Source: an uncultured Candidatus Rokubacteria bacterium | Lineage (GTDB): Bacteria; Methylomirabilota; Methylomirabilia; Rokubacteriales; CSP1-6 | DNA length: 64,000 nucleotides | NCBI GenBank assembly: GCA_963771355.1 | Contig: CAVYTA010000007.1 | Coordinates: 448,001-512,000 of the forward strand | Direction: 5' to 3' | Shown: positions 47,718 through 62,498 of the stretch, piece after piece | Numbering within the stretch: the stretch's first letter is position 1 | Layout of the letters: each line of letters begins with the position of its first letter | Program-made: the position numbers and the translations under genes | The notes under the pieces: generated by a model | Told to the model about the DNA's origin: nothing | What the model saw: the letters and a program-made list of their open reading frames with translations, nothing else | Databases searched by the model: none

Positions 47718-47734
47718 TTGGCACCGCGGTTGCT
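47718..47734 (+). promoter_or_regulatory. Sigma54 promoter
   Basis: TTGGCACCGCGGTTGCT, an exact TGGCAC-N5-TTGCW match. Confidence 0.85.
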
Positions 47735-48066: not shown

Positions 48067-49512
48067 ATGCGACTCGCTCCCAAGGTCTTTCTCGTTTCCG
48101 CCCTGGTGATCCTCGTGCTCGGCGGCGTTGCGGGCTGGAGTCTCCACGCCGTCAACGAGCTCGTCGAGGTCAACCGGGGCATCGCCACGCGCTCCGTCCC
48201 CGCGATCGAGGCTACCAGCGGGCTGCCGGAATCGTTCCGCCGGCTGGTGCGTCTGGAAGCCAAGTACTTCGTCCTCCGTGACCGCGCCTATGCCGATCTC
48301 TGGAATGAGCGGGCCACGCGCATCAGCAGCGAGCTCGACCGGCTGGGGACCTTGCTGGTCACCGACGAGGAGAAGCACTGGCACGCGGACGCGGTCGCCG
48401 CCTTCACGCGCTATCGCGCGCTGGTGGAGCAGGAGCGCGTGCTCCTCACCCGCGGGGAGACGGCGCGCGCCGAGCGGATTTCCAGCCGGGACGCGCGGGA
48501 GGCCGCCGATCACGCCGAGGCGAGCGTGGTCAAGCTCATGGCGGCGACCAACGCCGCCCTCCGGCGCGCCCAGGCGGAGGCGGGGGCGCTCGCCGGCCGT
48601 ACCTGGAACGCGGTGGTGTGGGCCCTCGTGGGCAGTCTCGGCGCCGCCCTCGCCGCCACGGGGTTTCTCGCGTTCCGGATGACGCGCGCGCTGCGCCGGC
48701 TCTCGCGGGCCACGCGTGACCTCGCCGACGGCTCGTTCACCGAGCCCTTGCCGACGAACCGGAAGGACGAGATCGGCGACCTGGCCCGCGCGTTCAACCG
48801 CATGGCCGTGCGGCTCAAGGAAGTGGACACGCTCAAGGAGGAGTTCTTCTCCCACATCTCGCACGACCTGCGAAATCCCCTCACCGGGATGCGCGGGGCG
48901 GCGCAGCTCCTCGTGCAGGGCCGGACCGGCCCCCTCCAGGAGCGGCAGATGAAGATGGTGGGGGTCATCGCCGAGAGCGCGGAGCGGATGCTGGCGATGG
49001 TGAACCAGATCCTCGAGTTCACCCGGCTGCGGGCGCATCTCATGCCGCTCGAGCGCCGGCCGGTGGACCTCGCCAAGGTCGTCGCGCGCGCCCTCGACGA
49101 GGTGCACCCGCAGGCGGAGGATGCCGGCATCGCGCTCACCACCACCACCAGCGGCGGGGACTTCTCCGTTCTCGGGGACGAGGCCGCCCTCATGCGAGTG
49201 GTGGTGAACCTCGTCAGCAACGCGGTCAAGTTCACGCCGCGCGGCGGATCCGTCCTCGCGCAGGTGCGTGACTGGGGCGCGGAGGTCGAGCTCCGGGTGA
49301 CGGACACGGGGGTCGGCATTGCCGCCGCCGAGATCCCTCACATCTTCGATCCCTACCGGCAGGCCCATACCGGCCGCAAGGGGTCCGGCCTCGGTCTCGC
49401 CGTGGTCAAGGGCTTGGTAGAGACCCACGGCGGTCGGGTGACCGTCGAGTCCGACCCCGACAAGGGAAGCTGCTTCGCGGTGACCCTGCCCCGCGCGGGG
49501 AGTCCGTCGTGA
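48067..49512 (+). CDS. Membrane sensor histidine kinase (helical periplasmic domain, HAMP, HisKA, HATPase), GlrK/QseE-like
   Basis: 2 TM, DEIGDLARAFNRM, ISHDLRNPLT, NAVKFT, GSGLGL. Confidence 0.9.
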   Translation: MRLAPKVFLVSALVILVLGGVAGWSLHAVNELVEVNRGIATRSVPAIEATSGLPESFRRLVRLEAKYFVLRDRAYADLWNERATRISSELDRLGTLLVTDEEKHWHADAVAAFTRYRALVEQERVLLTRGETARAERISSRDAREAADHAEASVVKLMAATNAALRRAQAEAGALAGRTWNAVVWALVGSLGAALAATGFLAFRMTRALRRLSRATRDLADGSFTEPLPTNRKDEIGDLARAFNRMAVRLKEVDTLKEEFFSHISHDLRNPLTGMRGAAQLLVQGRTGPLQERQMKMVGVIAESAERMLAMVNQILEFTRLRAHLMPLERRPVDLAKVVARALDEVHPQAEDAGIALTTTTSGGDFSVLGDEAALMRVVVNLVSNAVKFTPRGGSVLAQVRDWGAEVELRVTDTGVGIAAAEIPHIFDPYRQAHTGRKGSGLGLAVVKGLVETHGGRVTVESDPDKGSCFAVTLPRAGSPS

Positions 49513-50072
49513 GCCGCCCGAGTGCCGCCGCCCTGGTCGCCACGGTGGCTCTCCTTGGGTCCGGCTGCGCCACCAGCGAGTGGAAATGGCCGTCGTTGCC
49601 CTGGCCCGGCCAAACGTCCGCCAGCCCCCCGCCGTCCGCGGTCGCGGGGCCGCCCTCCCCGCCGCCGGTGCCGCCGTCCCCGCCGCCGGTGCCGTCCAGC
49701 CGCGTCGACGACCCCGTCCAGCTCGTGACCCGCGCGAACGAGCTCGCGCGCGACGGCATGCCGCTGACGGCCCGTGACGTCTACGAGCGGGTCATTCGCG
49801 ACTATCCCGAGCATCCGGTGCGTGCGGGTGCGCTCTTCGGCCTGGGGCAGCTCCAGGCCGACCCCGCCGGCCCGCTCCGGGACTACCGCGTCGCCTATCT
49901 CACTTTCGGGCGGGTGTTCGCGGAGCATCCGCGCAGCCGCTGGGAAGCCGAGGCGCGGGTCTGGCGGGGGATTCTCAACGAGCTCCTGGCGCGCGACGAC
50001 GAAGCCCAGCGGCTCCGTGCTCAGCTCCAGAAGCTCCGCCGCATCGAGGTCGATCTGGACAAGTCGCGCTAG
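49509..50072 (+). CDS. Lipoprotein with Pro-rich tether, TPR-like helices and C-terminal coiled coil (QseG-like)
   Basis: Lipobox GSGC, GTGA overlap with the kinase stop, C-terminal LQKLRRIEVDL. Confidence 0.75.
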   Translation: MSRPSAAALVATVALLGSGCATSEWKWPSLPWPGQTSASPPPSAVAGPPSPPPVPPSPPPVPSSRVDDPVQLVTRANELARDGMPLTARDVYERVIRDYPEHPVRAGALFGLGQLQADPAGPLRDYRVAYLTFGRVFAEHPRSRWEAEARVWRGILNELLARDDEAQRLRAQLQKLRRIEVDLDKSR

Positions 50073-50871: not shown

Positions 50872-51528
50872 CTACCGCAGCGCGTGCGCGAAGGCGAGAT
50901 ACCGGAAGCTGACTTCCTCGGCGTATCGGTCCTGCGGCCGGTTCTCGGTGGCCTTGTCGGGGTTCCGGTTGTACGCGCGGAGCGCGGTGGCGTTGAAGCC
51001 ATAGCGCTGGATTTGCCAGCGTAGGTAGGTCGTCCCCACCCGGATATTGAACTTGGGATCCGCCAGCGATCCCAGCGACGCGTAGGTCCCGTTCTTCCCC
51101 ATCTCCGGCGGCGTGTACGGAAGTCCCATCCGCTTCACCACCAGCTCGGCGGTGGACGGCATGATCTGCATGAGCCCGACCTCGCCCGACTTGCCGATGG
51201 CGTCGGGCTTGAAGCCGCTCTCCTTGTCGGCGATGGCGAGGACGATGCGGAAGTCGAGGTCCGAGGCCTGGGTGATCTCGAGCAAGGTGTGCGGGAAGCC
51301 CGCGAAGTCACGGATGGTGGCCTGAGGATTCCGCTCCACGATCAGCGCGATGATCCGCTGCTCCAGCTCCACCCGCCCCTGATCGACCCGTTCCTGGGCG
51401 AGCCGTCCCTGCGTGATGCCACCCGCGTAGAACAACGGTACGGCGGCGATCAAGAGCACGAGCGCGATGACCTGAAGCCACGCGCTGCGACGCTCGACGA
51501 ACCGTCGGGCGATTGCCGTTGCCTGCAT
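50872..51528 (-). CDS. Membrane-anchored SLT-domain lytic transglycosylase
   Basis: KESGF, GEVGLMQIMPSTA, DPKFNIRVGTTYL, ALRAYN; GGAGG RBS. Confidence 0.88.
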   Translation of the reverse strand: MQATAIARRFVERRSAWLQVIALVLLIAAVPLFYAGGITQGRLAQERVDQGRVELEQRIIALIVERNPQATIRDFAGFPHTLLEITQASDLDFRIVLAIADKESGFKPDAIGKSGEVGLMQIMPSTAELVVKRMGLPYTPPEMGKNGTYASLGSLADPKFNIRVGTTYLRWQIQRYGFNATALRAYNRNPDKATENRPQDRYAEEVSFRYLAFAHALR

Positions 51529-51601
51529 GGTCTTGGTTCCTCCGGATTGAATTTCGTTCATCTTTCGTGCGCGATGCTGCGGCGTTGACGAGCAGTAAAG
51601 G

Positions 51602-51618
51602 GGCAAGCGGTGTGCCAT
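51602..51618 (-). promoter_or_regulatory. Sigma54 promoter for the SLT gene
   Basis: Minus strand ATGGCACACCGCTTGCC (TGGCAC-N5-TTGC). Confidence 0.78.
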
Positions 51619-51865
51619 GGAGACGCCCCGCGGGAAGGCTGCGACTACAGCGACATGACACCGCGCAAGTTGTTCATGCTTCAAGGTTGTCAGATCCGCC
51701 GACACCCCGGACGGGGCCCGGGGACCTTTCGGGGCGCTCCCACGAGGGAGAGGGCCTCCGCCGGGGGGGCCCTCATTTTCGAGGGCCCCCTCTCAGACCG
51801 CGGGAACCCCATCGCCGACGAAAGAATTGCAGCCAACAATTTCAGCTACTTGACGGTCATTTTCG

Positions 51866-51882
51866 CTGGCAGCGACCTTGCT
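51866..51882 (+). promoter_or_regulatory. Sigma54 promoter for the FecR-domain gene
   Basis: CTGGCAGCGACCTTGCT (GG-N10-GC); IHF-like TTTCAGCTACTTG at 51840-51852. Confidence 0.75.
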
Positions 51883-51927
51883 ATTCAGGTGGTCAAGATG
51901 TCGTCATCCCTGAAGGAGGACCACCTG

Positions 51928-53258
51928 ATGCGTGCCCACTCCTCGAGATTCGCGGCCGCGCTGCTCGCGCTGGCACTCGGCCCTACTTCTGTATTTGCTC
52001 AGACTCCCGACGCGGTCGGGGTCGTGACCACGCTGTCCGGCCACGCCACCGTGGCCCGGGTCGGCCTGACCGAGCCCGCCTCGATGCGGTTCCGCGATCC
52101 TGTCTTCACCCGGGACCGCATCAGCACCGGCGAGAAGTCCATTGTCCGGGTGTTGCTGGGCGGCAAGGCCGTGGTGACCGCGCGCGAGCTCTCCGTCCTC
52201 ACCATCAATGAGGAGCCCCTCCGCTCCACGGTCATCCTCGGCTCGGGGAAAGTGGGCGCGAGCGTGCTCAAGGACCGCATGAAGTCCGGCGAGACCATCG
52301 AGTTCCGGACACCCAATGCGGTGGCGGTGGTGCGGGGCACGGTCCTGGTGGTGGAAGTGACCGAAGGTCCGGTCCCGGCCAGCGGCGGCCCGGCACCGGT
52401 CACCACGACGGTGTCCGTGATTCACGGCGCGGTGGACGTCTTCGCCCTCAAGGGGGGAACGATGACGCCCGTGCGCGTGGGCAGTCAGGAAAGCGTGCGC
52501 GTGACGGAGGGCCGACTGGGCACACTGCAGACGCTCACGCCTCCGGAGTCGCGTGCCCTCACCGCGGACCTCGAAGTGGCCCCGGACCGGCAGCACCAGA
52601 CCAAGAGTGTCCCCCAGGACGTCCGGCGGGCGATCGGCGCGCGTGAGCAGGCCAAGGCGGCGGCGCTCGTCGGCGCTCTCGCTCCGGCGGCGGGGACAAG
52701 CGGTGCGACACGGGCCGACACCTCCGCGCTCACCGCGGACGCGGTGAAGGGCGTGACCGGCACGCTGGACGGCGAGGTCGGGTCCGTGGACAACGTGCTC
52801 CTCGAGGCCAGCCGCCCCGTGCTCGAACTCGGCGGCAAGGTCGTCGGCACGGTGGGCACCGTGGTCACCGCGACCACCGACACCGTGCTCGGGCAGGGCA
52901 CCGTCGGCACCGTGAGTGGCTCGAGCGGCAACACCGTAGGGGGCGTCGTGACTGGTATCAGTACCTCGGTAGGCGGGAGCCTCACAGGCGGCAGTCTTAC
53001 GGGCAGTAGTCTCAAGGGCAGCAGTCTCACCGGCAGCAGTCTCACGGGCACCAGCCTCACTGGCAGCAGTCTCACCTGGCAGCAGTCTCACGCGGCAGCA
53101 GTCTCACCGGCACCAGCCTCACCGGCACCAGTCCCACCAGTGGCGGTGGCGTCACCAGCACCGGCGGCGGGACCAGCCTTTTGGGTGGCGTCACGGGCAC
53201 TGTGACCGGAGTGGTGGGCCCCGTCACCGGCGCGGTGGGCGGGCTGCTGCGACGCTGA
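51928..53258 (+). CDS. Secreted FecR-domain protein with Gly/Ser/Thr-rich tail; frameshifted in the repeat region
   Basis: AAGGAGG RBS, signal peptide, DRISTGEKS, TPNAVAVVRGT. The in-frame stop is at 53205, but the repeat-consistent frame ends at TGA 53256-53258. Confidence 0.75.
52975..53138 (+). repeat. 15-bp tandem repeat (GSSLT pentapeptide), about 11 units
   Basis: Consensus GGCAGCAGTCTCACN; two units carry one extra base. Confidence 0.88.
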
Positions 53259-53289: not shown

Positions 53290-54084
53290 GTGAAGGTCTC
53301 GCTTCTCGCGCTGGGGATGTCCCTGCTCGTCTCCACCGCCGCCCTGCCGGCCAGCGCGCAAAAGCGCGTGCCGGCGAGCGGCACCGCGCCGGCGGCGCGG
53401 CCCCAGGGCCCGGTGCGCCCACGTGAGACCGACACTGCGCGGCTTGAGCGCCTGGCCGCCGAGGTGGTTCGTACCACGCGGGAGTACCGGGCAAGCCTGG
53501 AGCGAATGCTCGTCATCTACCAGGGCGAGGCCGAGAGTCTCGCCGAGCTCGTCGAGGTCCGGCGCGATCTCCACCAGCGCGAGATCGTCTCCAAGCACGA
53601 GCTCGAGATCGCGGAACGCTTGCTCGCCGAGGCGCAGGCCAAGGTGACGGAGACCGAGCGCTGGATGCAGGACGCCGACAAGATCATCGGCGAGGCCACG
53701 GTGCACAGCGAGATCGCCAAGCTGCCACCGCTGCCCTCGGGCGGTTATCTCGCCACCAGCGTCTTCATTCGCTTCAACGGCTCCGCGCCCTTCTCGCTCG
53801 CCGAGGTGCCCCGCCTGGAGCGCTTCTTCGCGGGCCGTTTCGGACGCCCGCTGCCCATCAGCGCGCTCGGCCAGAGCCAGGCGCACGACCGCATCGGCTT
53901 CGACCATCGCAATGCGGTGGACGTCGCGGTGCATCCTGACAGCCCGGAGGGCCTGGCGCTGATGGGCTATCTCCAGGGCCAGAGCATCCCGTTCGTGGCC
54001 GTGCGCCAGGCGGTGCCCGGCTCGGCCACCGGCGCCCATATCCACATCGGCCAGCCGTCGCGGAGAATCGCCGGTCGACCCTGA
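53290..54084 (+). CDS. Secreted coiled-coil protein with C-terminal putative Zn-peptidase motif
   Basis: Signal peptide, heptad region, FDHRNAVDV..GAHIHIG. Confidence 0.75.
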   Translation: MKVSLLALGMSLLVSTAALPASAQKRVPASGTAPAARPQGPVRPRETDTARLERLAAEVVRTTREYRASLERMLVIYQGEAESLAELVEVRRDLHQREIVSKHELEIAERLLAEAQAKVTETERWMQDADKIIGEATVHSEIAKLPPLPSGGYLATSVFIRFNGSAPFSLAEVPRLERFFAGRFGRPLPISALGQSQAHDRIGFDHRNAVDVAVHPDSPEGLALMGYLQGQSIPFVAVRQAVPGSATGAHIHIGQPSRRIAGRP

Positions 54085-54135: not shown

Positions 54136-55539
54136 GTGGACGCCGCCGACTCTACCCGCACGATTCGTCCTGCCATCCTGGTGGTCGACGACGACCCCGG
54201 CCTCCGGGAGTCGTTCCGCCTGATCCTCGAGGACGAGTACGAGGTCCTCGACGTGCCGGACGGCGCGCAGGCTCTGGACATCGTCCGCTCCTACCAGGTG
54301 GATCTGGTGCTCCTCGACATCCGCCTGCCCGGCATGGACGGGCTCGAGGTCCTGGAGCGCATCAAGGCCCTCGACGAGCAGCTCGACGTGATCCTGGTCA
54401 CCGCGATCAAGACCGTCCGCACCGCGGTGTCGGCCATGAAGCTGGGCGCGCTCGACTACCTCACCAAGCCCTTCGACGAGGAGGAGGTGCTGGCCGTCAT
54501 CCGTCGGGCTCTCGAGAAGCGCGCCCTTGAGCGCGAGGTGGTCTTCCTGCGCTCCGAGCTGGCCCGCCGGGAAGACCTCTACGAGATGATCGGGCAGTCC
54601 GCCGAGATGCGGCGGCTCCACGGGCTGGTGGCCCAGGTGGCGCGCACTACCGCCACCGTGCTCATCACGGGGGAGAGCGGCACCGGCAAGGAGCTTCTCG
54701 CCCGCGCCGTTCACCGGCAGGGACCTCGCCGGGACCGGCCCTTCGTGGCGGTGAATCCGGCCGCCATCGCCGAGTCCCTCATGGAGACCGAGCTCTTCGG
54801 CCATGAGCGCGGCGCGTTCACGGGCGCGTACCAGCGCAAGCTCGGACGCTTCGAGCAGGCGCAGGGCGGCACGCTTTTCCTGGACGAGATCGGCGCGCTC
54901 CGCCCGGAGATGCAGGCCAAGCTCCTCCGCGTGCTCCAGGAACGGGAGATCGAGCGCGTGGGCGGTACCCACACCGTCAAGCTGGATCTGCGAATCATTG
55001 CGGCCACCAATACCGATCTCAAGCAGGCGGTGGCGGTCCAGACCTTCCGGGAGGACCTTTACTACCGCCTCAACGTCGTGCAGATCACCATGCCGTCCCT
55101 GCGTGACCGTCGGGACGACATCGGCGCGCTCGCCGACCACTTCGTCCGCCGCTATCGCCAGCAGTTCGGCAAGCCGATCGTGGGGGTGGCGCCCGACGCC
55201 CTGGAGACGCTGTCCGACTACTCCTGGCCGGGCAATGTGCGCGAGCTCCAGAACGTCATCGAGCGCTGCGTGGCCCTCGCGGAGGGTCCCCTCATCCGTC
55301 TCTCCGACCTGCCGCTGGAGTTCATGATCCCCGACGCGCGCAGCCGCGCGGACGCGGCCGGCAGTCTGGACCTCGAGGAAGCCCACGAGCAGTTCGAGCG
55401 GCAGATCGTCCGGCGCGTGCTGGACCGCGTGGACTGGAACCAGAGTGAGGCGGCCCGTCTCCTCGGTCTCCATCGCAACACGCTCAAGGTGAAGATGGCG
55501 CGCTGGAACCTCAAGCGGAGCGCGCCGGACTCGCGCTGA
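54136..55539 (+). CDS. Sigma54-dependent response regulator (NtrC/AtoC family; REC-AAA+-Fis HTH)
   Basis: GESGTGKE, ELFGHERGAFTGA, LFLDEIG, WPGNVREL, NQSEAARLLGLHRNTL. Confidence 0.95.
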   Translation: MDAADSTRTIRPAILVVDDDPGLRESFRLILEDEYEVLDVPDGAQALDIVRSYQVDLVLLDIRLPGMDGLEVLERIKALDEQLDVILVTAIKTVRTAVSAMKLGALDYLTKPFDEEEVLAVIRRALEKRALEREVVFLRSELARREDLYEMIGQSAEMRRLHGLVAQVARTTATVLITGESGTGKELLARAVHRQGPRRDRPFVAVNPAAIAESLMETELFGHERGAFTGAYQRKLGRFEQAQGGTLFLDEIGALRPEMQAKLLRVLQEREIERVGGTHTVKLDLRIIAATNTDLKQAVAVQTFREDLYYRLNVVQITMPSLRDRRDDIGALADHFVRRYRQQFGKPIVGVAPDALETLSDYSWPGNVRELQNVIERCVALAEGPLIRLSDLPLEFMIPDARSRADAAGSLDLEEAHEQFERQIVRRVLDRVDWNQSEAARLLGLHRNTLKVKMARWNLKRSAPDSR

Positions 55540-55743
55540 GCCTGCCCTGAGGGCCTCCGATGCACTGTCGGCAGGGCACGAGTTCTAAGCGCGCGTCGGA
55601 GTTGGAGAATTCGGATCGAGATCCGCCGTTTCCCACGGAGCTGCCCTGCGCGTGGGGCAGCGCGTCATGCAAGCTTCGGGTTCATGACGGTGAAATTCTC
55701 TGACGCCATGGCCACTTGGCGCGCAGGCGCGCCGCGCATATTC

Positions 55744-55760
55744 GTGGCGCTCGATTTGCT
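55744..55760 (+). promoter_or_regulatory. Sigma54 promoter
   Basis: GTGGCGCTCGATTTGCT (TGGC..TTGCT, GG-N10-GC), directly downstream of the activator gene. Confidence 0.75.
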
Positions 55761-55834
55761 CTATCCTCCCGCGCAGGCGGGCGCCTCATGGTGAGGTCCT
55801 CCCCGCCCAAACCTTTTGCTTGGGGGGAAGACCA

Positions 55835-55972
55835 ATGGTCAGGCTCGTTGCGATGCTAGCGATGCTCGCGTCCTTTCTGCTGGTGGGACCAGTGATCGAG
55901 TCGGGCACGTCGGAGTCCACGCAGATCTTCCAGGCCATCGGCACCGCGGACGGAAGCGGCGGGGGGGATTAG
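55835..55972 (+). CDS. 45-aa secreted prepeptide, candidate signalling peptide precursor (not in the ORF track)
   Basis: MVRLVAMLAMLASFLLVGPVIESGTSESTQIFQAIGTADGSGGGD*; GGGGGGAAG RBS, upstream sigma54 promoter, downstream hairpin. Confidence 0.65.
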   Translation: MVRLVAMLAMLASFLLVGPVIESGTSESTQIFQAIGTADGSGGGD

Positions 55973-56029
55973 GACACGCGGTATCGCTCCGATGCAGGCT
56001 GGGATGGAGCCCGCTGCCCGGTCGGGACG

Positions 56030-56057
56030 AAGGGGGGCTTCGGCCCCCCTTTGCTCT
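56030..56057 (+). terminator. Stem-loop, candidate terminator/attenuator after the peptide gene
   Basis: AAGGGGGGC-TTCG-GCCCCCCTT followed by TGCTCT; perfect 9-bp stem with cUUCGg loop and a short U-tract. Confidence 0.7.
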
Positions 56058-57652
56058 TCGCCGGCTTCGTGCTCGCGGCCGCGCTCCTGGTATGCGGTCA
56101 GCTCGCTCCCGCGACGGGGCAGGAGCGCCCGCCGGGCTCGCCCACGCTGTCCGCGGTCTACCGTCGACCGCTGGGCAACGATCCCGGCACGCTCGATCCG
56201 CCGCGCATCAGCGACACGTATGGCCGCTCGGTGGCGGAGCAGATCTTCGACGGCCTGGTTCAGTTCGATCAGACTCTCACCGTCAGCCCGGCGCTGGCCC
56301 GCTTCTGGAAAGCCTCGCGCGACGGCCTCACCTGGACCTTCAACCTTCGGCAGGGCGTGCGCTTCCATCACGGTCGGGAGCTCACCTCGGAGGACGTGGT
56401 CTACTCCCTCACCCGGCTCCTCGATCCGCGCCTCCGATCGGGCGCGGCCGAGCAATTCGCCGTGATCCGCGGCGCGCGAGAGTTCCGGGAGGGCAAGGTG
56501 AGCCGGGTGGAAGGCCTCCGCGCGATCGACCGCTATACCGTGGAGGTCTCGCTCACCGAGGCCTTCACGCCCTTCGTCTCCGTCCTCGCGGTCGGCCACG
56601 CGAAGATCGTTCCCAAGGAGCTGGCGGAGGCGCAGGGGGAGGCCTTCGGCACGCAGCCCGTCGGCACCGGACCCTACAAGTTCTCGCACTGGGAACGGGG
56701 AAAAGAGATCGCGCTCGTCGCCAACGGGGACTACTTCGGGGGCGCGCCCCAGCTCGCGCGCGTGCTCTATCGGATCTTCCCGGGGGAATCCAGCGATCAG
56801 ATCTGTCGGGAGTTCGAGCAGGGCAACCTCGAGGAGAGCCCGGTGCCCCCGGTCTGCCGGGGCAAGGTGGGCGACTCTCGCTACCTTCACGTGCAGCGCC
56901 CCACCTTCAGCGTGCGGTTTTACGGCTTCAACACGCGCTTCAAGCCGCTCAGCGACGAGCGGATCCGGATGGCCATCACGCATGCGCTGGACCGGGAACG
57001 GATCCTCCAGGAGATCTTCGCGGGCCGGTTTCAGGCCGCCCGTAGCATCCTCCCCCCGGGGATGCCGGGCCACAATCCGAGCATCAAGACCCCGCCGCAC
57101 GACCTGGCGCGGGCGCGGGCGCTGCTCCGCGCGGCGGGGTATCCCGAGGGCAAGGGGATTCCCGTCATCCCGATCTGGTCGAGCGTGAGGAGCCCGCGGA
57201 TCGAGAGCGAGCTCGCCGCGATCAAGACGCAGCTCCACGCGATCGGCATCCACGCGGAAACCAACTTCGAGACCGACTGGCCAGTCTTCTCGAAGCGCCT
57301 GGTCGAAGGTCGGCTGCCCATGTTCCTCTATGCGTGGCACGCGGAGCTGCCCGATCCGGACAGCTTCCTGTTTCAGCTCTTCCACTCGAAGAGCCCGCGT
57401 AACCCCACCGGGTATGCCAATCCCGTGGTGGACGCGCTGCTCGTCCAGGCCCGCCGGGAAAAAGACATCCTGCGCCGGAAGGAGATCTACCAGCGGGCGG
57501 AGCCTCTGATCCTCGAAGATGCCCCGGTGATCCCGGTGTGGCACTACGCCTACGAGCGGCTCTTCCAGGGATATGTCCGCAACGTCGAGGTCAGCGGGCT
57601 CGGCGAGGCCTATATCCCCCTCCGCAAGATCTGGCTGGAGGACCGTCGGTGA
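56051..57652 (+). CDS. Orphan oligopeptide-binding protein (SBP family 5, OppA/DppA-like) coupled to a sensor kinase
   Basis: DPGTLDP, IFDGLV, TWTFNLRQGVRFHHGRELTSEDVVYS, PVGTGPY; no permease or ATPase genes nearby; stop overlaps the kinase start. TTG start is uncertain. Confidence 0.88.
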   Translation: MLFAGFVLAAALLVCGQLAPATGQERPPGSPTLSAVYRRPLGNDPGTLDPPRISDTYGRSVAEQIFDGLVQFDQTLTVSPALARFWKASRDGLTWTFNLRQGVRFHHGRELTSEDVVYSLTRLLDPRLRSGAAEQFAVIRGAREFREGKVSRVEGLRAIDRYTVEVSLTEAFTPFVSVLAVGHAKIVPKELAEAQGEAFGTQPVGTGPYKFSHWERGKEIALVANGDYFGGAPQLARVLYRIFPGESSDQICREFEQGNLEESPVPPVCRGKVGDSRYLHVQRPTFSVRFYGFNTRFKPLSDERIRMAITHALDRERILQEIFAGRFQAARSILPPGMPGHNPSIKTPPHDLARARALLRAAGYPEGKGIPVIPIWSSVRSPRIESELAAIKTQLHAIGIHAETNFETDWPVFSKRLVEGRLPMFLYAWHAELPDPDSFLFQLFHSKSPRNPTGYANPVVDALLVQARREKDILRRKEIYQRAEPLILEDAPVIPVWHYAYERLFQGYVRNVEVSGLGEAYIPLRKIWLEDRR

Positions 57653-59565
57653 TCGGGGGCCGCGTCCATCGCCGCCTCGGCCTCCGCCTGGGCTCGCTCC
57701 AGGCGCGCTTCCTGTTGGGCTCCGTCCTGATCTTCCTGGTGGTGATGACGGGAGTGCTCGCGGTGGTGGAGTACGGGCAGCGCGCGGCCATCATCGAAGA
57801 AGTGCTGCGCCGGGGAGAAGTGATCACGCGCGATCTGGCCGCCATCTCGTCCCCGTCGCTCCTGCTCTACAGCTTCACCGATCTCGAGCAAAATGTGGAC
57901 CGGGTGCGGGCCAATGCGGACGTGGTGTACGCCATCATCGTGGACGCCGAGGGCAAGGTGGCGGCCCACAGCGGGCGTCCGGAGCTGGTGGGCCGGGTGC
58001 TCTCGGCGCCGCTGGACCGGCGCGCGGTGGCCACCGACGTGCTCCTCGTGCAGGAGACGCTGCGGCAGAGCCGCCACGACGGCGTGTATGACTTCGCCGT
58101 CCCGGTGCTGGTGGGCGCGCAGCGCTGGGGGACCGCCCGGGTCGGGTTGTCCAAGCGGCGCATGGAGGACCAGATCTTCCGGACCCGTCTGGAGCTGGCC
58201 GGGCTCACGGTGATCACGCTCCTCGTCGGCGGCCTCGCCGCCGCCCTGGTGGCTCGCCGCATCGCGCGCCCGGTGCGCGAGCTGGCCGCCGGCGCGGAGG
58301 CCATCGCGCGCGGGGAACTGGACCAGCGCATCGCGCCCACCGGACTCGGCGAGATCGGCCAGCTCGCGCTGGCCTTCAATCACATGGCCGCGCAGCTCCT
58401 CCAGCAGCGGAACGATCTCGAGGCCACCCACGCCGAGGTCCGGGTCCGCTTTCAGGAAGTCGCGGACCTCAAGCGCTATACCGACAGTATCCTGTCCTCG
58501 ATCACCAGCGGCATCGTGACCCTGGATCTGGACGGACGCGTGGCCACGATGAATCCCGCCGCCGAGATCCTCACCGGGCTCTTCGCCGAGGAGATCACGG
58601 GGCGCTACTGCGCGGAGGTCTTCGCCCACACCCCGGAAGTGGCGGAGATCCTCATGGAAACCCTGTCCAGCCGGTCGGGTACCGCCAACGTCTCGCTCAC
58701 CCTGCGCCGACTCAACGGCACCACCGTGCCGGTCGAGATGGGGACCGCCCCTCTTCGGCGGCTGGAGGGCAAGGACCTGGGCGTGGTGGGCGTGTTCCGC
58801 GACGTCAGCCAGGTCCGCGAGCTGGAGGGACAGCTCCGGCGCTCCGACCGGCTCGCCGCACTGGGCACGCTGGCCGCCGGCCTCGCGCACGAGATCAAGA
58901 ACCCGCTCGCCTCCCTGCGCACCTTCACCCGCATCATCCCGCGCAAGTTCGAGGACCCGCGCTTCCGCGAGACCTTCATGCGCGTGGTGCCGCACGAGCT
59001 GGAGCGGATCAACGGCATCGTGGAGCAGCTCCTCGAGCTCGCCCGGCCCAGCCGGCTCCGCCCGGCTCCCACCGCGATCCCGGTGCTGCTCGACCGGGTG
59101 CTCGAGCTGTACGCCAACGAGCTCGACACCAAGCAGGTGGTGGTGGTGCGCGAGTACGCGCGCGACCTGCCCACCCTCGGCGCGGACCAGGACCGCCTCT
59201 ACGAGGCGTTCGTCAACCTCGTGAGCAATGCGCTGGAGGCGATGGAAACGGGCGGACGGCTCACCGTCCGCACCGGCTGGCACCGCGGCGCCGAGGCGGA
59301 GGCGGGCGGCACGGGCCGGCGACGGATGCGCGTCGAGATCGAGGATTCGGGCAGCGGCATCTCTCCCTCGGAGGCCGACAAAGTGTTCGATCCGTTCTTC
59401 ACGACCAAGGCGGCGGGGACCGGTCTCGGGCTTGCGCTGACCCACAAGATCATCGAGGACCACGGCGGCAGCATCAGCTTCCGCAGTGCTCCCGGCGTGG
59501 GCACCACGTTCACGGTGGTGCTGCCCATGGTCGCGGAGCGGCCGTCGGGAGAGCGCGATGCCTAA
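57649..59565 (+). CDS. Sensor histidine kinase (TM, periplasmic Cache-like, HAMP, PAS, HisKA, HATPase; AtoS/NtrB-like)
   Basis: GTGA overlap; EIGQLALAFNHM, ILSSITSGIVTLDLDG..NPAAE, AGLAHEIKNPL, PFFTTK..GTGLGL. Confidence 0.92.
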   Translation: MIGGRVHRRLGLRLGSLQARFLLGSVLIFLVVMTGVLAVVEYGQRAAIIEEVLRRGEVITRDLAAISSPSLLLYSFTDLEQNVDRVRANADVVYAIIVDAEGKVAAHSGRPELVGRVLSAPLDRRAVATDVLLVQETLRQSRHDGVYDFAVPVLVGAQRWGTARVGLSKRRMEDQIFRTRLELAGLTVITLLVGGLAAALVARRIARPVRELAAGAEAIARGELDQRIAPTGLGEIGQLALAFNHMAAQLLQQRNDLEATHAEVRVRFQEVADLKRYTDSILSSITSGIVTLDLDGRVATMNPAAEILTGLFAEEITGRYCAEVFAHTPEVAEILMETLSSRSGTANVSLTLRRLNGTTVPVEMGTAPLRRLEGKDLGVVGVFRDVSQVRELEGQLRRSDRLAALGTLAAGLAHEIKNPLASLRTFTRIIPRKFEDPRFRETFMRVVPHELERINGIVEQLLELARPSRLRPAPTAIPVLLDRVLELYANELDTKQVVVVREYARDLPTLGADQDRLYEAFVNLVSNALEAMETGGRLTVRTGWHRGAEAEAGGTGRRRMRVEIEDSGSGISPSEADKVFDPFFTTKAAGTGLGLALTHKIIEDHGGSISFRSAPGVGTTFTVVLPMVAERPSGERDA

Positions 59566-60715
59566 GCCGGCCATCGCGGACCCGCAGGTCGAGCGGCGCA
59601 TCGCGCGCTCCGAGGTGATCAGCAAGGTCGCGGGGGGCGTGGTTCACAACTTCAACAACATCCTCTCGGTGCTGCTCGGCCGCGTGGAGCTGATGCTGGG
59701 CCAGGTGGATGGCGGCCGGCTGGACCCCACCCAGCTCCGCAAGGGGCTCGTGTCGATCCAGAAGGCGGCGCTGGATGCCGCCGAGCTGCTGACGCGCCTG
59801 CGCGATCTCGCCCGGCCTCCCCAGGACGTGCCCTTCTCCACCTTCGACCTCAACGCCGCCGTGGCCGAGGCCATCGACTTCATCCAGCCTCACCTCATGA
59901 CGGTGGCGCAGGGTATGGGGATCACGGTACGGCTCACGCCGCGACTGGCGCCCCCGCCGGTGCTGGTGTCCGGGCAGTCCAGCGCCCTGCGCGAGGTGCT
60001 GGTGAACCTGATCCTCAACGCCATCGAGGCCATGCCCGAGGGCGGCGATGTGGGCATCGAGACGCGGCGCGACGGCCCGTGGGTGAAGCTCCAGGTGTCG
60101 GATACCGGGATCGGCATGACGGAGGAGGTCCGCGCCCAGGTCTTCAGGCCGTTCTTCACCACCAAGTCGGCCGGCTCCACCGGCCTGGGCCTTTCCTCGG
60201 CCAAGGACCTCATCACCGGACACGGGGGCACGATCTCGGTGGCGAGCACGCCGGGGCGGGGCTGCACGTTCACCATCGCGTTGCCGAGCGCGGAGAGCCG
60301 CCCGGGTCCCGTCGATGCCGCCGCGGAGCCGGCGCTGCCGCCGGGCCTCCGGGTGCTGGTGGTGGACGACCAGCGTGATTTTGGCGACATCCTGCGCGAG
60401 TTCCTCGGGGCCAAGGGCTGCTCGGTTGCCATCGTTCGAAGTGGCCGGGCCGCCCTCGAGGCCCTCGAGCGGCACCGGTTCGACCTCGTGCTCACCGATC
60501 TGCTGCTGCCCGAGGTGAGCGGCTGGGAGATCGCCCGCGTGGCCAAGCGCCGGTCGCTCGGCATCCGCGTCATCCTCATGTCCGGCAATATCGTGGCCGA
60601 GGATCTCTGGAGCGCGGCCAGCGTGGACGCGTGCCTCATGAAGCCCATCGACCTCAACAAGCTCCTCGGCGTGATGGCCGAGGTGCTCGTCGGGGTCCCG
60701 CGCCGCGACGCCTGA
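59558..60715 (+). CDS. Sensor-less hybrid kinase (HisKA-HATPase-REC)
   Basis: AGGVVHNFNNIL about 30 aa from the start, NLILNAIEAM, PFFTTK, VVDDQ..LTD..KPI. Confidence 0.85.
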   Translation: MPKPAIADPQVERRIARSEVISKVAGGVVHNFNNILSVLLGRVELMLGQVDGGRLDPTQLRKGLVSIQKAALDAAELLTRLRDLARPPQDVPFSTFDLNAAVAEAIDFIQPHLMTVAQGMGITVRLTPRLAPPPVLVSGQSSALREVLVNLILNAIEAMPEGGDVGIETRRDGPWVKLQVSDTGIGMTEEVRAQVFRPFFTTKSAGSTGLGLSSAKDLITGHGGTISVASTPGRGCTFTIALPSAESRPGPVDAAAEPALPPGLRVLVVDDQRDFGDILREFLGAKGCSVAIVRSGRAALEALERHRFDLVLTDLLLPEVSGWEIARVAKRRSLGIRVILMSGNIVAEDLWSAASVDACLMKPIDLNKLLGVMAEVLVGVPRRDA

Positions 60716-60758
60716 CCGCGGTCTCGCCCCGGACCGGGATCGAGTACACTTGGGCGTC

Positions 60759-61523
60759 ATGAACCTGGTGTCCTGGAACGTCAACGGGCTGCGCGCGGCG
60801 TGGAAGAAGGGCTTCGTGGATTTCCTCAGCGCCCGCGAGGCGGACGTGGTCAGCGTGCAGGAGACCAAGCTCCAGGCCGATCAGCTCACCGAGGAGATGC
60901 GCACGCCGGCCGGCTACCGCTCCTACTGGAGCTTCGCCGAGAAAAAGGGGTATAGCGGCGTCGTCACGTACTTGAAGGACGAGCCCGTGCACGTGGCCAC
61001 GGCGTCGTTCGGCACGCCCGCGCTGGACGTCGAGGGGCGAATCGTCCACACCGAGCTGCCGGAGTTCCACCTCCTCAACGTGTATTTTCCCAACGGGGGC
61101 ATGGGGCCGGAGCGCCTGGCCCACAAGCTCAAGTTCTACGACGACTTCCTCGGGCTCACCGAGGGCCTCCGGAAGGGCGGCAAGGGCGTGATCGTGTGCG
61201 GCGACGTCAACACCGCGCATACCGAGATCGACCTGGCCCGCCCGAAGGAAAACGAGAAGACGTCGGGCTTCTTGCCGGCCGAGCGCGAATGGGTGACCCG
61301 CTTCATCGATGCCGGCTTCACCGACACCTTCCGGCTCTTCACGAAAGAGTCCGGCCATTACACCTGGTGGGACATGAAGACGGGCGCGCGCGCCCGCAAC
61401 GTGGGCTGGCGAATCGACTACTTCCTGGTCTCCGAGGAGCTGCACGGGCGGGTGCGCGACGCCGGTATTCTTCCGGACGTCCAGGGCTCCGACCACTGCC
61501 CGATCACGCTGACCCTGGAGTAG
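60759..61523 (+). CDS. xth: Exodeoxyribonuclease III
   Basis: SWNVNGLRA, QETK, KKGYSGV, GDVNTAH, GWRIDYF, GSDHCP. Confidence 0.96.
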   Translation: MNLVSWNVNGLRAAWKKGFVDFLSAREADVVSVQETKLQADQLTEEMRTPAGYRSYWSFAEKKGYSGVVTYLKDEPVHVATASFGTPALDVEGRIVHTELPEFHLLNVYFPNGGMGPERLAHKLKFYDDFLGLTEGLRKGGKGVIVCGDVNTAHTEIDLARPKENEKTSGFLPAEREWVTRFIDAGFTDTFRLFTKESGHYTWWDMKTGARARNVGWRIDYFLVSEELHGRVRDAGILPDVQGSDHCPITLTLE

Positions 61524-61674: not shown

Positions 61675-62289
61675 CTAGCGCGAGGCCGTGCGCTCCGCCC
61701 GCTCGAGGCCGGCGCCTTCGAGCTCCTTGTGGCGGAGCTTCTTCACGAGATCCTCGTACGAGGTCTTCGAGATGATCCGGTTGAACTGGCTCCGGTAGTT
61801 CCCCACGAAGCTGACGCCCTCGATGAGCACGTCGTAGATCGCCCAGCGCGAGCTCTGCTGATGGAGTCGGTAGCTCAACGCGATTTCCGAGGTGCGCCCA
61901 GTCAGGATCTTCGAGCGCACGGTGGCGAAGTCGCCATCCACCGTCTCCCCGAGATACACGATGTGCTCCCCGGAGTAGTGCTCGAGTCGGGACAGATAGG
62001 AGCGTTCCAGGAGGTCACGGAACAGCGCCACGAACTCCTCCCGCTCGCTCGGCGTGCGATCGCTCCAGTGCCGGGCGAGGGTGCGGCGGGCCATCTCCTC
62101 GAAGTCGAAGAGCCGCCCGGCCGCGCGGCGAATCTCGAGGCGGCGCTTCTCCGCGGCCGCCGGATGGGATGCATCGAAATCCTGCACCGCCTGCACCACC
62201 TGCTCGATGCCCGTCTTCACCACTTCGGTCGGGCTGGGCGTGGCGGCCGGCGCCATTGCTAGCAGTATCAAGGCCAGGGCCTTGTGCAT
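61675..62289 (-). CDS. mlaC: MlaC/Ttg2D phospholipid-binding periplasmic protein
   Basis: FDFEEMARRTLARHW, WAIYDVLIEGVSFVGNYRSQFNRII; GGAGG RBS. Confidence 0.88.
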   Translation of the reverse strand: MHKALALILLAMAPAATPSPTEVVKTGIEQVVQAVQDFDASHPAAAEKRRLEIRRAAGRLFDFEEMARRTLARHWSDRTPSEREEFVALFRDLLERSYLSRLEHYSGEHIVYLGETVDGDFATVRSKILTGRTSEIALSYRLHQQSSRWAIYDVLIEGVSFVGNYRSQFNRIISKTSYEDLVKKLRHKELEGAGLERAERTASR

Positions 62290-62345
62290 TGATGTCCTCC
62301 CTGGTTCAGGGTCGGCGGCAGCAGCCCGCCGTCGGGTCCTGGTAG

Positions 62346-62362
62346 AGCATGGGTAGTGCCAG
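62346..62362 (-). promoter_or_regulatory. Sigma54 promoter for the mlaC-like gene
   Basis: Minus strand CTGGCACTACCCATGCT (GG-N10-GC); IHF-like AGTCAGTCAGTTG at 62377-62389. Confidence 0.68.
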
Positions 62363-62498
62363 ATTGAGTCCTCCGGCAACTGACTGACTTTCCATGCCTT
62401 TCGGCGGCAAGCCAGCCGGGAGCCCGTCAGGGGCGGGACAGGCTCCCGTCAGAGAGCGGACAGGAGAGGCGGCGCGCGGGCGTGCTATGTTGCAGGGC

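Follow-up and report, generated by a model that had tools for sequence, protein, structure and literature searches.

A candidate peptide-signaling module with an OppA-like receptor and a sigma54 promoter in diderm bacteria

Peptide quorum sensing (QS) is described as mainly a Gram-positive trait (PMC5388746). The same source describes a short signaling peptide in a Gram-negative bacterium, the extracellular death factor of E. coli, which acts on mazEF-mediated death; no locus of precursor, solute-binding protein (SBP), and kinase is described in the part of it drawn on here. The SBP-sensor pairs in Table 1 of PMC8050422 have AI-2, arsenite, sugars, TMAO (trimethylamine N-oxide), citrate, and sugar phosphates as ligands, and no kinase row of that table has a gene-encoded peptide ligand. 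In this report, we describe a candidate peptide-signaling module. It occupies positions 54,136 to 60,715 of a 64,000-nucleotide stretch (the window; forward strand of contig CAVYTA010000007.1, positions 448,001 to 512,000, assembly GCA_963771355.1) from an uncultured Candidatus Rokubacteria bacterium. A first-pass annotation had proposed an autoinducing peptide circuit here. Every part that it named, from the activator with its intact GAFTGA through the -24/-12 motif, a 45-amino-acid (aa) open reading frame (ORF), the hairpin, and the SBP to two overlapping kinases, was found in place, in the same order and on the + strand. Judging from sequence, we consider it fairly likely that the module is a quorum- or kin-sensing peptide loop with an SBP co-receptor, working from cell to cell. 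We lean, a little less firmly, towards a third class of peptide QS, widespread in uncultured Gram-negative bacteria of soil and sediment. In this class, Gly-rich 5-9mers from a signal peptide or from subtilase repeats would cross the outer membrane and be read by an OppA-derived co-receptor on a sCache sensor, with sigma54 or cyclic di-GMP (c-di-GMP) output and a pherotype code in the pocket.

The predicted precursor gene and its Gly-rich tails

The 45-aa ORF (55835..55972, +) follows a purine-rich ribosome binding site. It encodes a basic n-region, a hydrophobic h-region, a conserved P-x-x-E, a predicted G-T-A cleavage site, and a Gly-rich tail. P19, E22, G36, and A38 of the leader are invariant in one alignment. 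The ORF has no match in Pfam or NCBIfam, its Atlas clusters are unnamed, and so are the 10 distant peptides that were looked up. The JGI label 'PilX' on one peptide (P0273) looks spurious. All 35 loci examined first (duplicates included) contain the ORF. Its profile matches 128 of 251 Methylomirabilota genomes, and the ORF recurs in Desulfobacterota. The SBP profile matches 139 of the 251, a count that includes a sister clade, and two genera (10 and 21 genomes) are without both. The ratio pN/pS of the ORF is 0.29, 0.40, and 0.51 in three length classes. By its conservation and these ratios, the small ORF is a real, selected gene.

The ORF is also tied to one group of SBPs. Among 167 distinct SBPs of the module's clade, 138 have a signal-like ORF upstream, 15 have none, and 14 have too little upstream sequence. 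Family members make up 135 of the 138 distinct upstream ORFs, though the filter did not demand a Gly tail. Counted by SBP, a family ORF lies upstream of 137/167, and one further SBP has only an unrelated candidate. The first-pass annotation had made its proposal depend on a small ORF or a sigma54 motif recurring near orthologues, and both do: the ORF at 137/167 and a -24/-12 motif, 55-166 nucleotides (nt) before it, in 120 of these 137. Neither promoter nor ORF was seen at any of 25 sister-clade SBP loci, some of which have short upstream sequence. Some genomes carry tandem arrays of 2-5 or more precursor copies. The Rokubacteria genome has a single copy; a search of it for paralogous peptides gave none above threshold, and no pentamer repeats either. 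Locus L164 holds about five near-identical copies. Peptide arrays or SBP genes are frameshifted in L164 (G050), L157, and L160, possibly through assembly errors. Contigs from RNA runs cover the window ORF (X18, 55757-55953; X17, 55869-56028), but they come without strand, start, or level, may be DNA, and were not used.

Three precursor designs occur beside the one SBP clade. In the long design, to which the window belongs, a leader of 35-43 aa is followed by G-x-A and a tail of 4-9 residues in 91/91 cases, a count partly set by the search pattern. In the short design, a signal of 24-27 aa ending in V/A-x-A precedes the tail. In one class of Desulfobacterota, the short ORF has 29-33 aa, a signal mostly ending in V-L-A, and a tail of 5-7 residues such as EGGGY, DGGGW, or DEGGW. 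The short form is found in 21/22 loci of that class, with signals ending in V/A/L-L/F/M-A, and the remaining locus is truncated. A minor short variant has A-Y-A before the tail. The clade SBP occurs in 7/301 genomes sampled from the phylum of a Desulfosarcina record, which we take to be Desulfobacterota, and in 21/68 genomes of one of its classes.

The third design is a secreted subtilase with repeats. Six of the 15 clade SBPs that have no ORF adjoin such a subtilase, with period-5 repeats (DGGAA, DGGSA, DGGSG, EGMAG) that keep the same A/G-D/E-G junction. In L212 and L213, the repeats are entered via T-A-D-G-G, as in the window precursor. Pentamer repeats, in 3-28 copies, are carried by 53/55 related subtilases, although this homologue search was biased by the repeats within the query. 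When the search started from the subtilase, 3/301 genomes matched, and in all 3 the subtilase gene is grouped with those of a clade SBP and a sCache protein; an additional subtilase copy is on its own. Such repeat-bearing S8 subtilases are likely polyprotein precursors of pentamers. Those with tandem Gly-rich pentamers in one or two loops, encoded beside a clade SBP and a sCache protein, include L212:9158-10903, L213:6887-8554, L258:1012-2397, L361-L363, and P0313-P0365. Some repeat-bearing subtilases are labeled in their source as coming from Desulfococcus multivorans and Desulfonema magnum, which are cultured species, and a native host may therefore exist.

The element common to the three designs is a tail after a small residue, usually D/E-G-G-x-x. 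The mature signal is likely limited to the 4-9 residues that follow the final conserved Ala. Because the tail is common to all precursor types, the predicted window peptide is DGSGGGD (563 Da; codons 55949..55969, +). There are 95 distinct tails, of which 86 weigh <=600 Da. Sec-type leaders end in Ala in 135/135 family ORFs, where the split patterns required Ala. The precursor would be exported by Sec, and signal peptidase I would probably be the enzyme that cuts it behind G-x-A or V-x-A. In the short form, five residues follow what is otherwise a textbook signal peptide. The polar c-region of the long form is unusually long; this form makes a poor signal peptide by textbook standards, and its processing may take two cuts. 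A first cut at V-I-E-S was rejected as not general, since two other families have impermissible residues at the corresponding position. A lipoprotein reading of tails with Cys was also rejected: Cys is limited to a minority of tails, and the preceding G-N-A is unlike the lipobox consensus.

The solute-binding protein as candidate receptor

The SBP gene (56051..57652, +) encodes a family-5 protein that scores 282 bits against PF00496 (cut-off 32.4). Its model folds as OppA/DppA (pLDDT 83), with fold matches at TM values up to 0.79 and 20-30% identity. In a FastTree phylogeny, the SBPs of the module group into a single clade (168 tips, support 1.0). The closest named relatives of the window SBP are titled Rokubacteria or Methylomirabilota. 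No permease gene follows the SBP. The first-pass annotation was right that permease and ATPase genes are missing from the module; a kinase gene comes next instead. A second SBP group is surrounded by long open frames that were considered as fusions; it proved to be the sister clade, at 36-39% and without promoter or ORF. Two SBP genes stand in tandem in L121, L220, L258, and L264, some with two kinases, and are possible second channels.

Two features point to the peptide tail as the ligand. The first concerns Asp419 of OppA, by which that protein grips the first residue of its ligand (PMC6305025). By motif alignment to OppA-type chains, the equivalent position is acidic in 167/167 clade SBPs (Asp 165, Glu 2).

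The second is co-variation. Among short-type loci, the identity of tail residue +1 corresponds to that of the SBP pocket loop (columns 151-152) in 27/27 cases: Asp at +1 occurs with K-G/S (15/15) and Glu with N-K (12/12), and other residues occur with neither in 14/15. On a tree built without columns 130-175, D/E at +1 changes 7 times by parsimony, even between SBPs that are 81-87% alike. Columns 100, 105, 111, and 151-153 track +1 perfectly, and a perfect column arose in 0/2000 label shuffles, which ignore kinship. The pocket-loop Lys shifts one place as the +1 side chain lengthens. SBP columns 150-152 align with M-D-F of the G-M-D-F stretch of H. pylori DppA, which presumably lines the first side-chain pocket. 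No other finding points as strongly to the tail as the SBP ligand as this co-variation does, and we consider this role highly probable. The freed tail would bind through its free N-terminus, as the co-variation and the kept Trp-x-x-Asp motif suggest. Variants with D and E at +1 would then be pherotypes. Columns tracking tail length, an aromatic end, or a W/Y end rose above the shuffle null but are confounded with clade and were not used.

Relay, promoter, and alternatives

The sensor kinase (57649..59565, +; TM-sCache_3_2-TM-HAMP-PAS-HisKA-HATPase by Pfam, TM being transmembrane) overlaps the SBP gene by GTGA, and a sCache kinase directly follows the SBP in 93/97 loci. In both phyla, sCache_3_2 is found alongside the SBP, whether or not PAS is present and even where GAF-HD-GYP forms the cytoplasmic part; PAS is missing from the kinases of two other families. 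In L212:7086-9029 (with GAF) and L213:10741-12681, the sCache sensor is fused to HAMP and HD-GYP instead of a kinase, which suggests c-di-GMP output. A sCache domain that is kept beside the SBP fits a co-receptor better than a transporter subunit. The SBP would dock on this domain in the manner of the LuxP-LuxQ and AioX-AioS pairs, and a relay from SBP to kinase is probable. The second kinase (59558..60715, +) is a sensorless hybrid with a weak HisKA (below cut-off), HATPase, and REC, and overlaps the first by 8 nt. The first-pass annotation had both kinases and their overlaps right, but the second is not core. Two loci, L001 and L002, both matching genomes of the same genus, are the only ones with a full-length orthologue of it after the first kinase; none of the 20 wider loci has one. 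The second kinase is a lineage-specific add-on.

The sigma54-dependent response regulator (54136..55539, +) consists of REC, a sigma54 AAA domain with GAFTGA, and HTH_8. It scores below the NtrC/AtoC/ZraR cut-offs (443.7 bits against the 558.6 required for the NtrC equivalog TIGR01818). A co-oriented homologue lies upstream in 107/112 loci. The promoter, TGGCGC-N5-TTGCT (55745..55760, +), is kept in 120/137 loci; rpoN is present in the genome. The window has 2 matches to the -24/-12 motif against 0.17 expected by chance. The other strong match, at 47719-47734, precedes kinase and lipoprotein-like genes (48067-50072). In L004 and L195, ~3 kb separate activator and peptide gene, and no promoter motif lies near the ORF.

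An 18-bp palindrome of the TGCAC-N8-GTGCA type (55561..55578, +) lies 184 nt before the promoter as a putative enhancer. The dyad TGCA-N10-TGCA occurs in 26/65 upstream regions against 0 in shuffles. An enhancer matrix exceeds 10 bits in 44/65 and 34/34 regions against 0 shuffled, having been trained on the regions on which it was scored. In both phyla, the palindrome lies ~90-130 or 160-240 nt before the promoter. It is likely the binding site of the adjacent activator, which likely drives the downstream promoter. The kinase would phosphorylate the activator, which would bind the enhancer and open the -24/-12 promoter. That the module controls its own promoter is, in our estimate, very probable. 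Both the SBP-to-kinase relay and autoactivation rest on gene linkage (93/97 and 107/112).

A terminator-like hairpin (56032..56048, +) overlaps the N-terminal codons of the SBP. Most loci have a hairpin that follows the final peptide gene and extends into the SBP start, and purine/pyrimidine stems occur here in most homologues. The hairpin is likely an attenuator that favors peptide mRNA, and would let this mRNA exceed that of the receptor. The peptide dose would rise with tandem arrays of the gene and with the repeat polymers of subtilases. Most tails, at <=600 Da, are within the size limit of porins and would pass through them to neighboring cells.

The palindrome is found elsewhere in the genome (G000) with sigma54-like promoters, at C3:81986, C5:768622, and C6:2110384 (L321-L323); in two of these it occurs twice, at -70 and -103. 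With G000 counted, such promoters precede a REC/HD-GYP/Rce1-like operon in 5/6 loci, a lone Fis-type HTH (helix-turn-helix) gene in 4/7, and a pilin-pilMNOPQ-like operon in 2/6. Partly conserved in the genus, they are leads only for the output of the module. Two near-identical sigma54 promoters at C2:7046 (+) and C2:12073 (-) are each followed by a leader that may resemble a c-di-GMP-I riboswitch.

Several points weigh against an autoinducing loop as described above. Binding, cleavage, phosphotransfer, and transcription are all predicted from sequence alone. The co-variation that the first-pass annotation had anticipated between tails and pocket holds for the short type; in the long type, including the window, D and E tails share the loop V-G-H-A (28 and 14 times), and the D/E code does not apply. 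Besides the kinship ignored by the label shuffles, the co-varying columns and the peptide gene might be moved together by recombination as a single block. The window SBP itself has Glu instead of the conserved Asp, and a weak start: its first in-frame canonical start is a TTG beside the 3' arm of the hairpin. An assembly error there was rejected, as DNA runs X6, X9, and X10 show no indel between ORF and TTG. (A 3-nt in-frame insertion in the SBP N-terminus, position 56128, appears in two DNA runs.) Orphan status alone is not special, because 36 of the 65 family-5 SBP frames in the genome have no permease motif nearby by a crude motif test. For nine of the 167 clade SBPs, no precursor of either type is visible, and Gly-rich tails carry little information. 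Lastly, ownership of the enhancer is uncertain because the genome encodes 24 sigma54 AAA proteins, including one whose AAA domain is 67% alike and whose HTH is similar. This paralogous activator is encoded at C6:1755246-1756682, between a protease-like gene and another SBP-like gene.

The alternative that fares best keeps the ligand and the receptor but makes the loop cell-autonomous, with a periplasmic peptide that reports secretion, signal peptidase activity, or outer-membrane leakiness, or that works as a bistable switch or timer. Signal peptidase and SBP share one compartment. A cell would thus meet its own peptide first, which also counts against a signal between cells, and self-sensing is a real rival because the peptide is freed where its receptor already sits. 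No outer-membrane exporter was seen in loci with annotated neighbors, and the low information content of the tails agrees with such a loop. However, the 95 distinct tails and the matched receptor changes between closely similar SBPs fit kin-private channels better. Gene arrays that reach 5 or more copies, and repeats that number as many as 28, hint that peptide is lost from the cell, and most tails are small enough for porins. We regard self-sensing as unlikely, although it takes the largest share of our doubt.

Much less probable is a PrgZ-like, pheromone-binding SBP that passes the peptide on to an Opp/Dpp permease from another locus, for reading in the cytoplasm by PAS or another receptor. 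The genome has many family-5 SBPs, with permease motifs near 29/65, and PrgZ and OppA-PhrE are among the fold matches. Opp re-import is the rule for RRNPPA peptides (PMC11343458). Against such import, PAS is absent from the kinases of two other families, sCache is kept even beside HD-GYP outputs, the SBP and kinase genes overlap, and the module has no TPR receptor.

A shade more improbable still is an active species other than the tail. The uncut small protein might modulate the kinase from within the membrane, in the manner of MgrB, or a hydrophobic piece of the signal peptide might be the pheromone, as with cCF10. The C-terminal part of the leader is indeed well conserved within each type, and the long form makes a poor signal peptide. 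However, leaders differ completely between the precursor forms while tails agree, the subtilase repeats hold only tail and junction, and the position found to co-vary with the SBP, residue +1, belongs to the tail. We give least credence to an SBP-kinase pair that senses an environmental nutrient peptide, with the ORF as a merely regulated secreted product: known pairs do sense nutrients or small molecules (PMC8050422, Table 1) and nine clade SBPs are without visible precursor, but the co-variation reaches single residues of an encoded tail, and repeat polymers of the same motif replace the ORF.

The module is flanked by genes for a lytic transglycosylase (50872-51705, -), an exonuclease III-type protein (60750-61523), and MlaC (61675-62379, -). 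The MlaC gene points to an outer membrane and agrees with the diderm nature suggested by the first-pass annotation. Just upstream of the activator lie a FecR-domain protein with LTGSS-type pentapeptide repeats (51760-53205) and a secreted 264-aa protein with no Pfam match (53290-54084), neither of which has a counterpart in the 20 wider loci compared.

Comparison with known systems

In Agr and ComCDE, autoinducing peptide, kinase, and regulator also share one locus, and pherotypes occur. Those systems use a polytopic kinase and a LytTR regulator, whereas the module has a two-TM sCache_3_2 kinase and a sigma54 activator. Furthermore, the module has an SBP between peptide and kinase, and neither a double-Gly leader nor a thiolactone. 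No AgrB/ComAB-type processing exporter was seen among annotated neighbors. The activator side has all features of a sigma54 enhancer-binding protein system: REC-AAA(GAFTGA)-HTH, a -24/-12 promoter, an upstream enhancer, and rpoN.

The SBP shares its fold and the Trp-x-x-Asp motif with OppA, DppA, PrgZ, and AapF, and signals are bound by PrgZ, OppA (PhrE), and AapF. Unlike these proteins, which serve transporters, the members of the module clade are encoded next to sCache receptors and share a distinct set of conserved residues (Y26, K154, W346, and E357). In linking an SBP gene to a sensor with a Cache-like periplasmic domain, the module resembles LuxP/LuxQ, AioX/AioS, CBP/ChiS, and TorT/TorS (PMC8050422, Table 1). 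In fact, CBP/ChiS uses a family-5 SBP, and AioS is sCache-like (PMC8050422).

The module has in common with Rap-Phr and other RRNPPA systems of Bacillota a Sec-exported propeptide (with cleavage predicted here), an adjacent receptor gene, a C-terminal mature peptide (5-10 aa in RRNPPA), and duplicated pheromone copies (PMC11343458). In RRNPPA systems, however, the peptide is re-imported by Opp and meets a cytoplasmic receptor (PMC11343458), whereas here it would be received by an extracytoplasmic SBP linked to a sCache kinase and a sigma54 activator, and the hosts are diderms. The cytoplasmic TPR-type receptor, the hallmark of RRNPPA, has no counterpart in the module.

For every part a precedent exists. 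The open literature, searched also with exact motif strings and exclusive of subscription papers and preprint supplements, yielded no description of their combination, of the subtilase polyprotein precursor, or of the pocket code; within that scope, the earlier remark that no system of this exact architecture is described still stands. If the reading is true, gene-encoded peptide signals would be placed in abundant diderm lineages without known signaling chemistry, and an orthogonal peptide channel for Gram-negative bacteria would also serve synthetic biology. Receptors in known peptide QS either belong to the cytoplasmic RRNPPA proteins or are kinases to which the peptide binds directly, and the module would add a third route.

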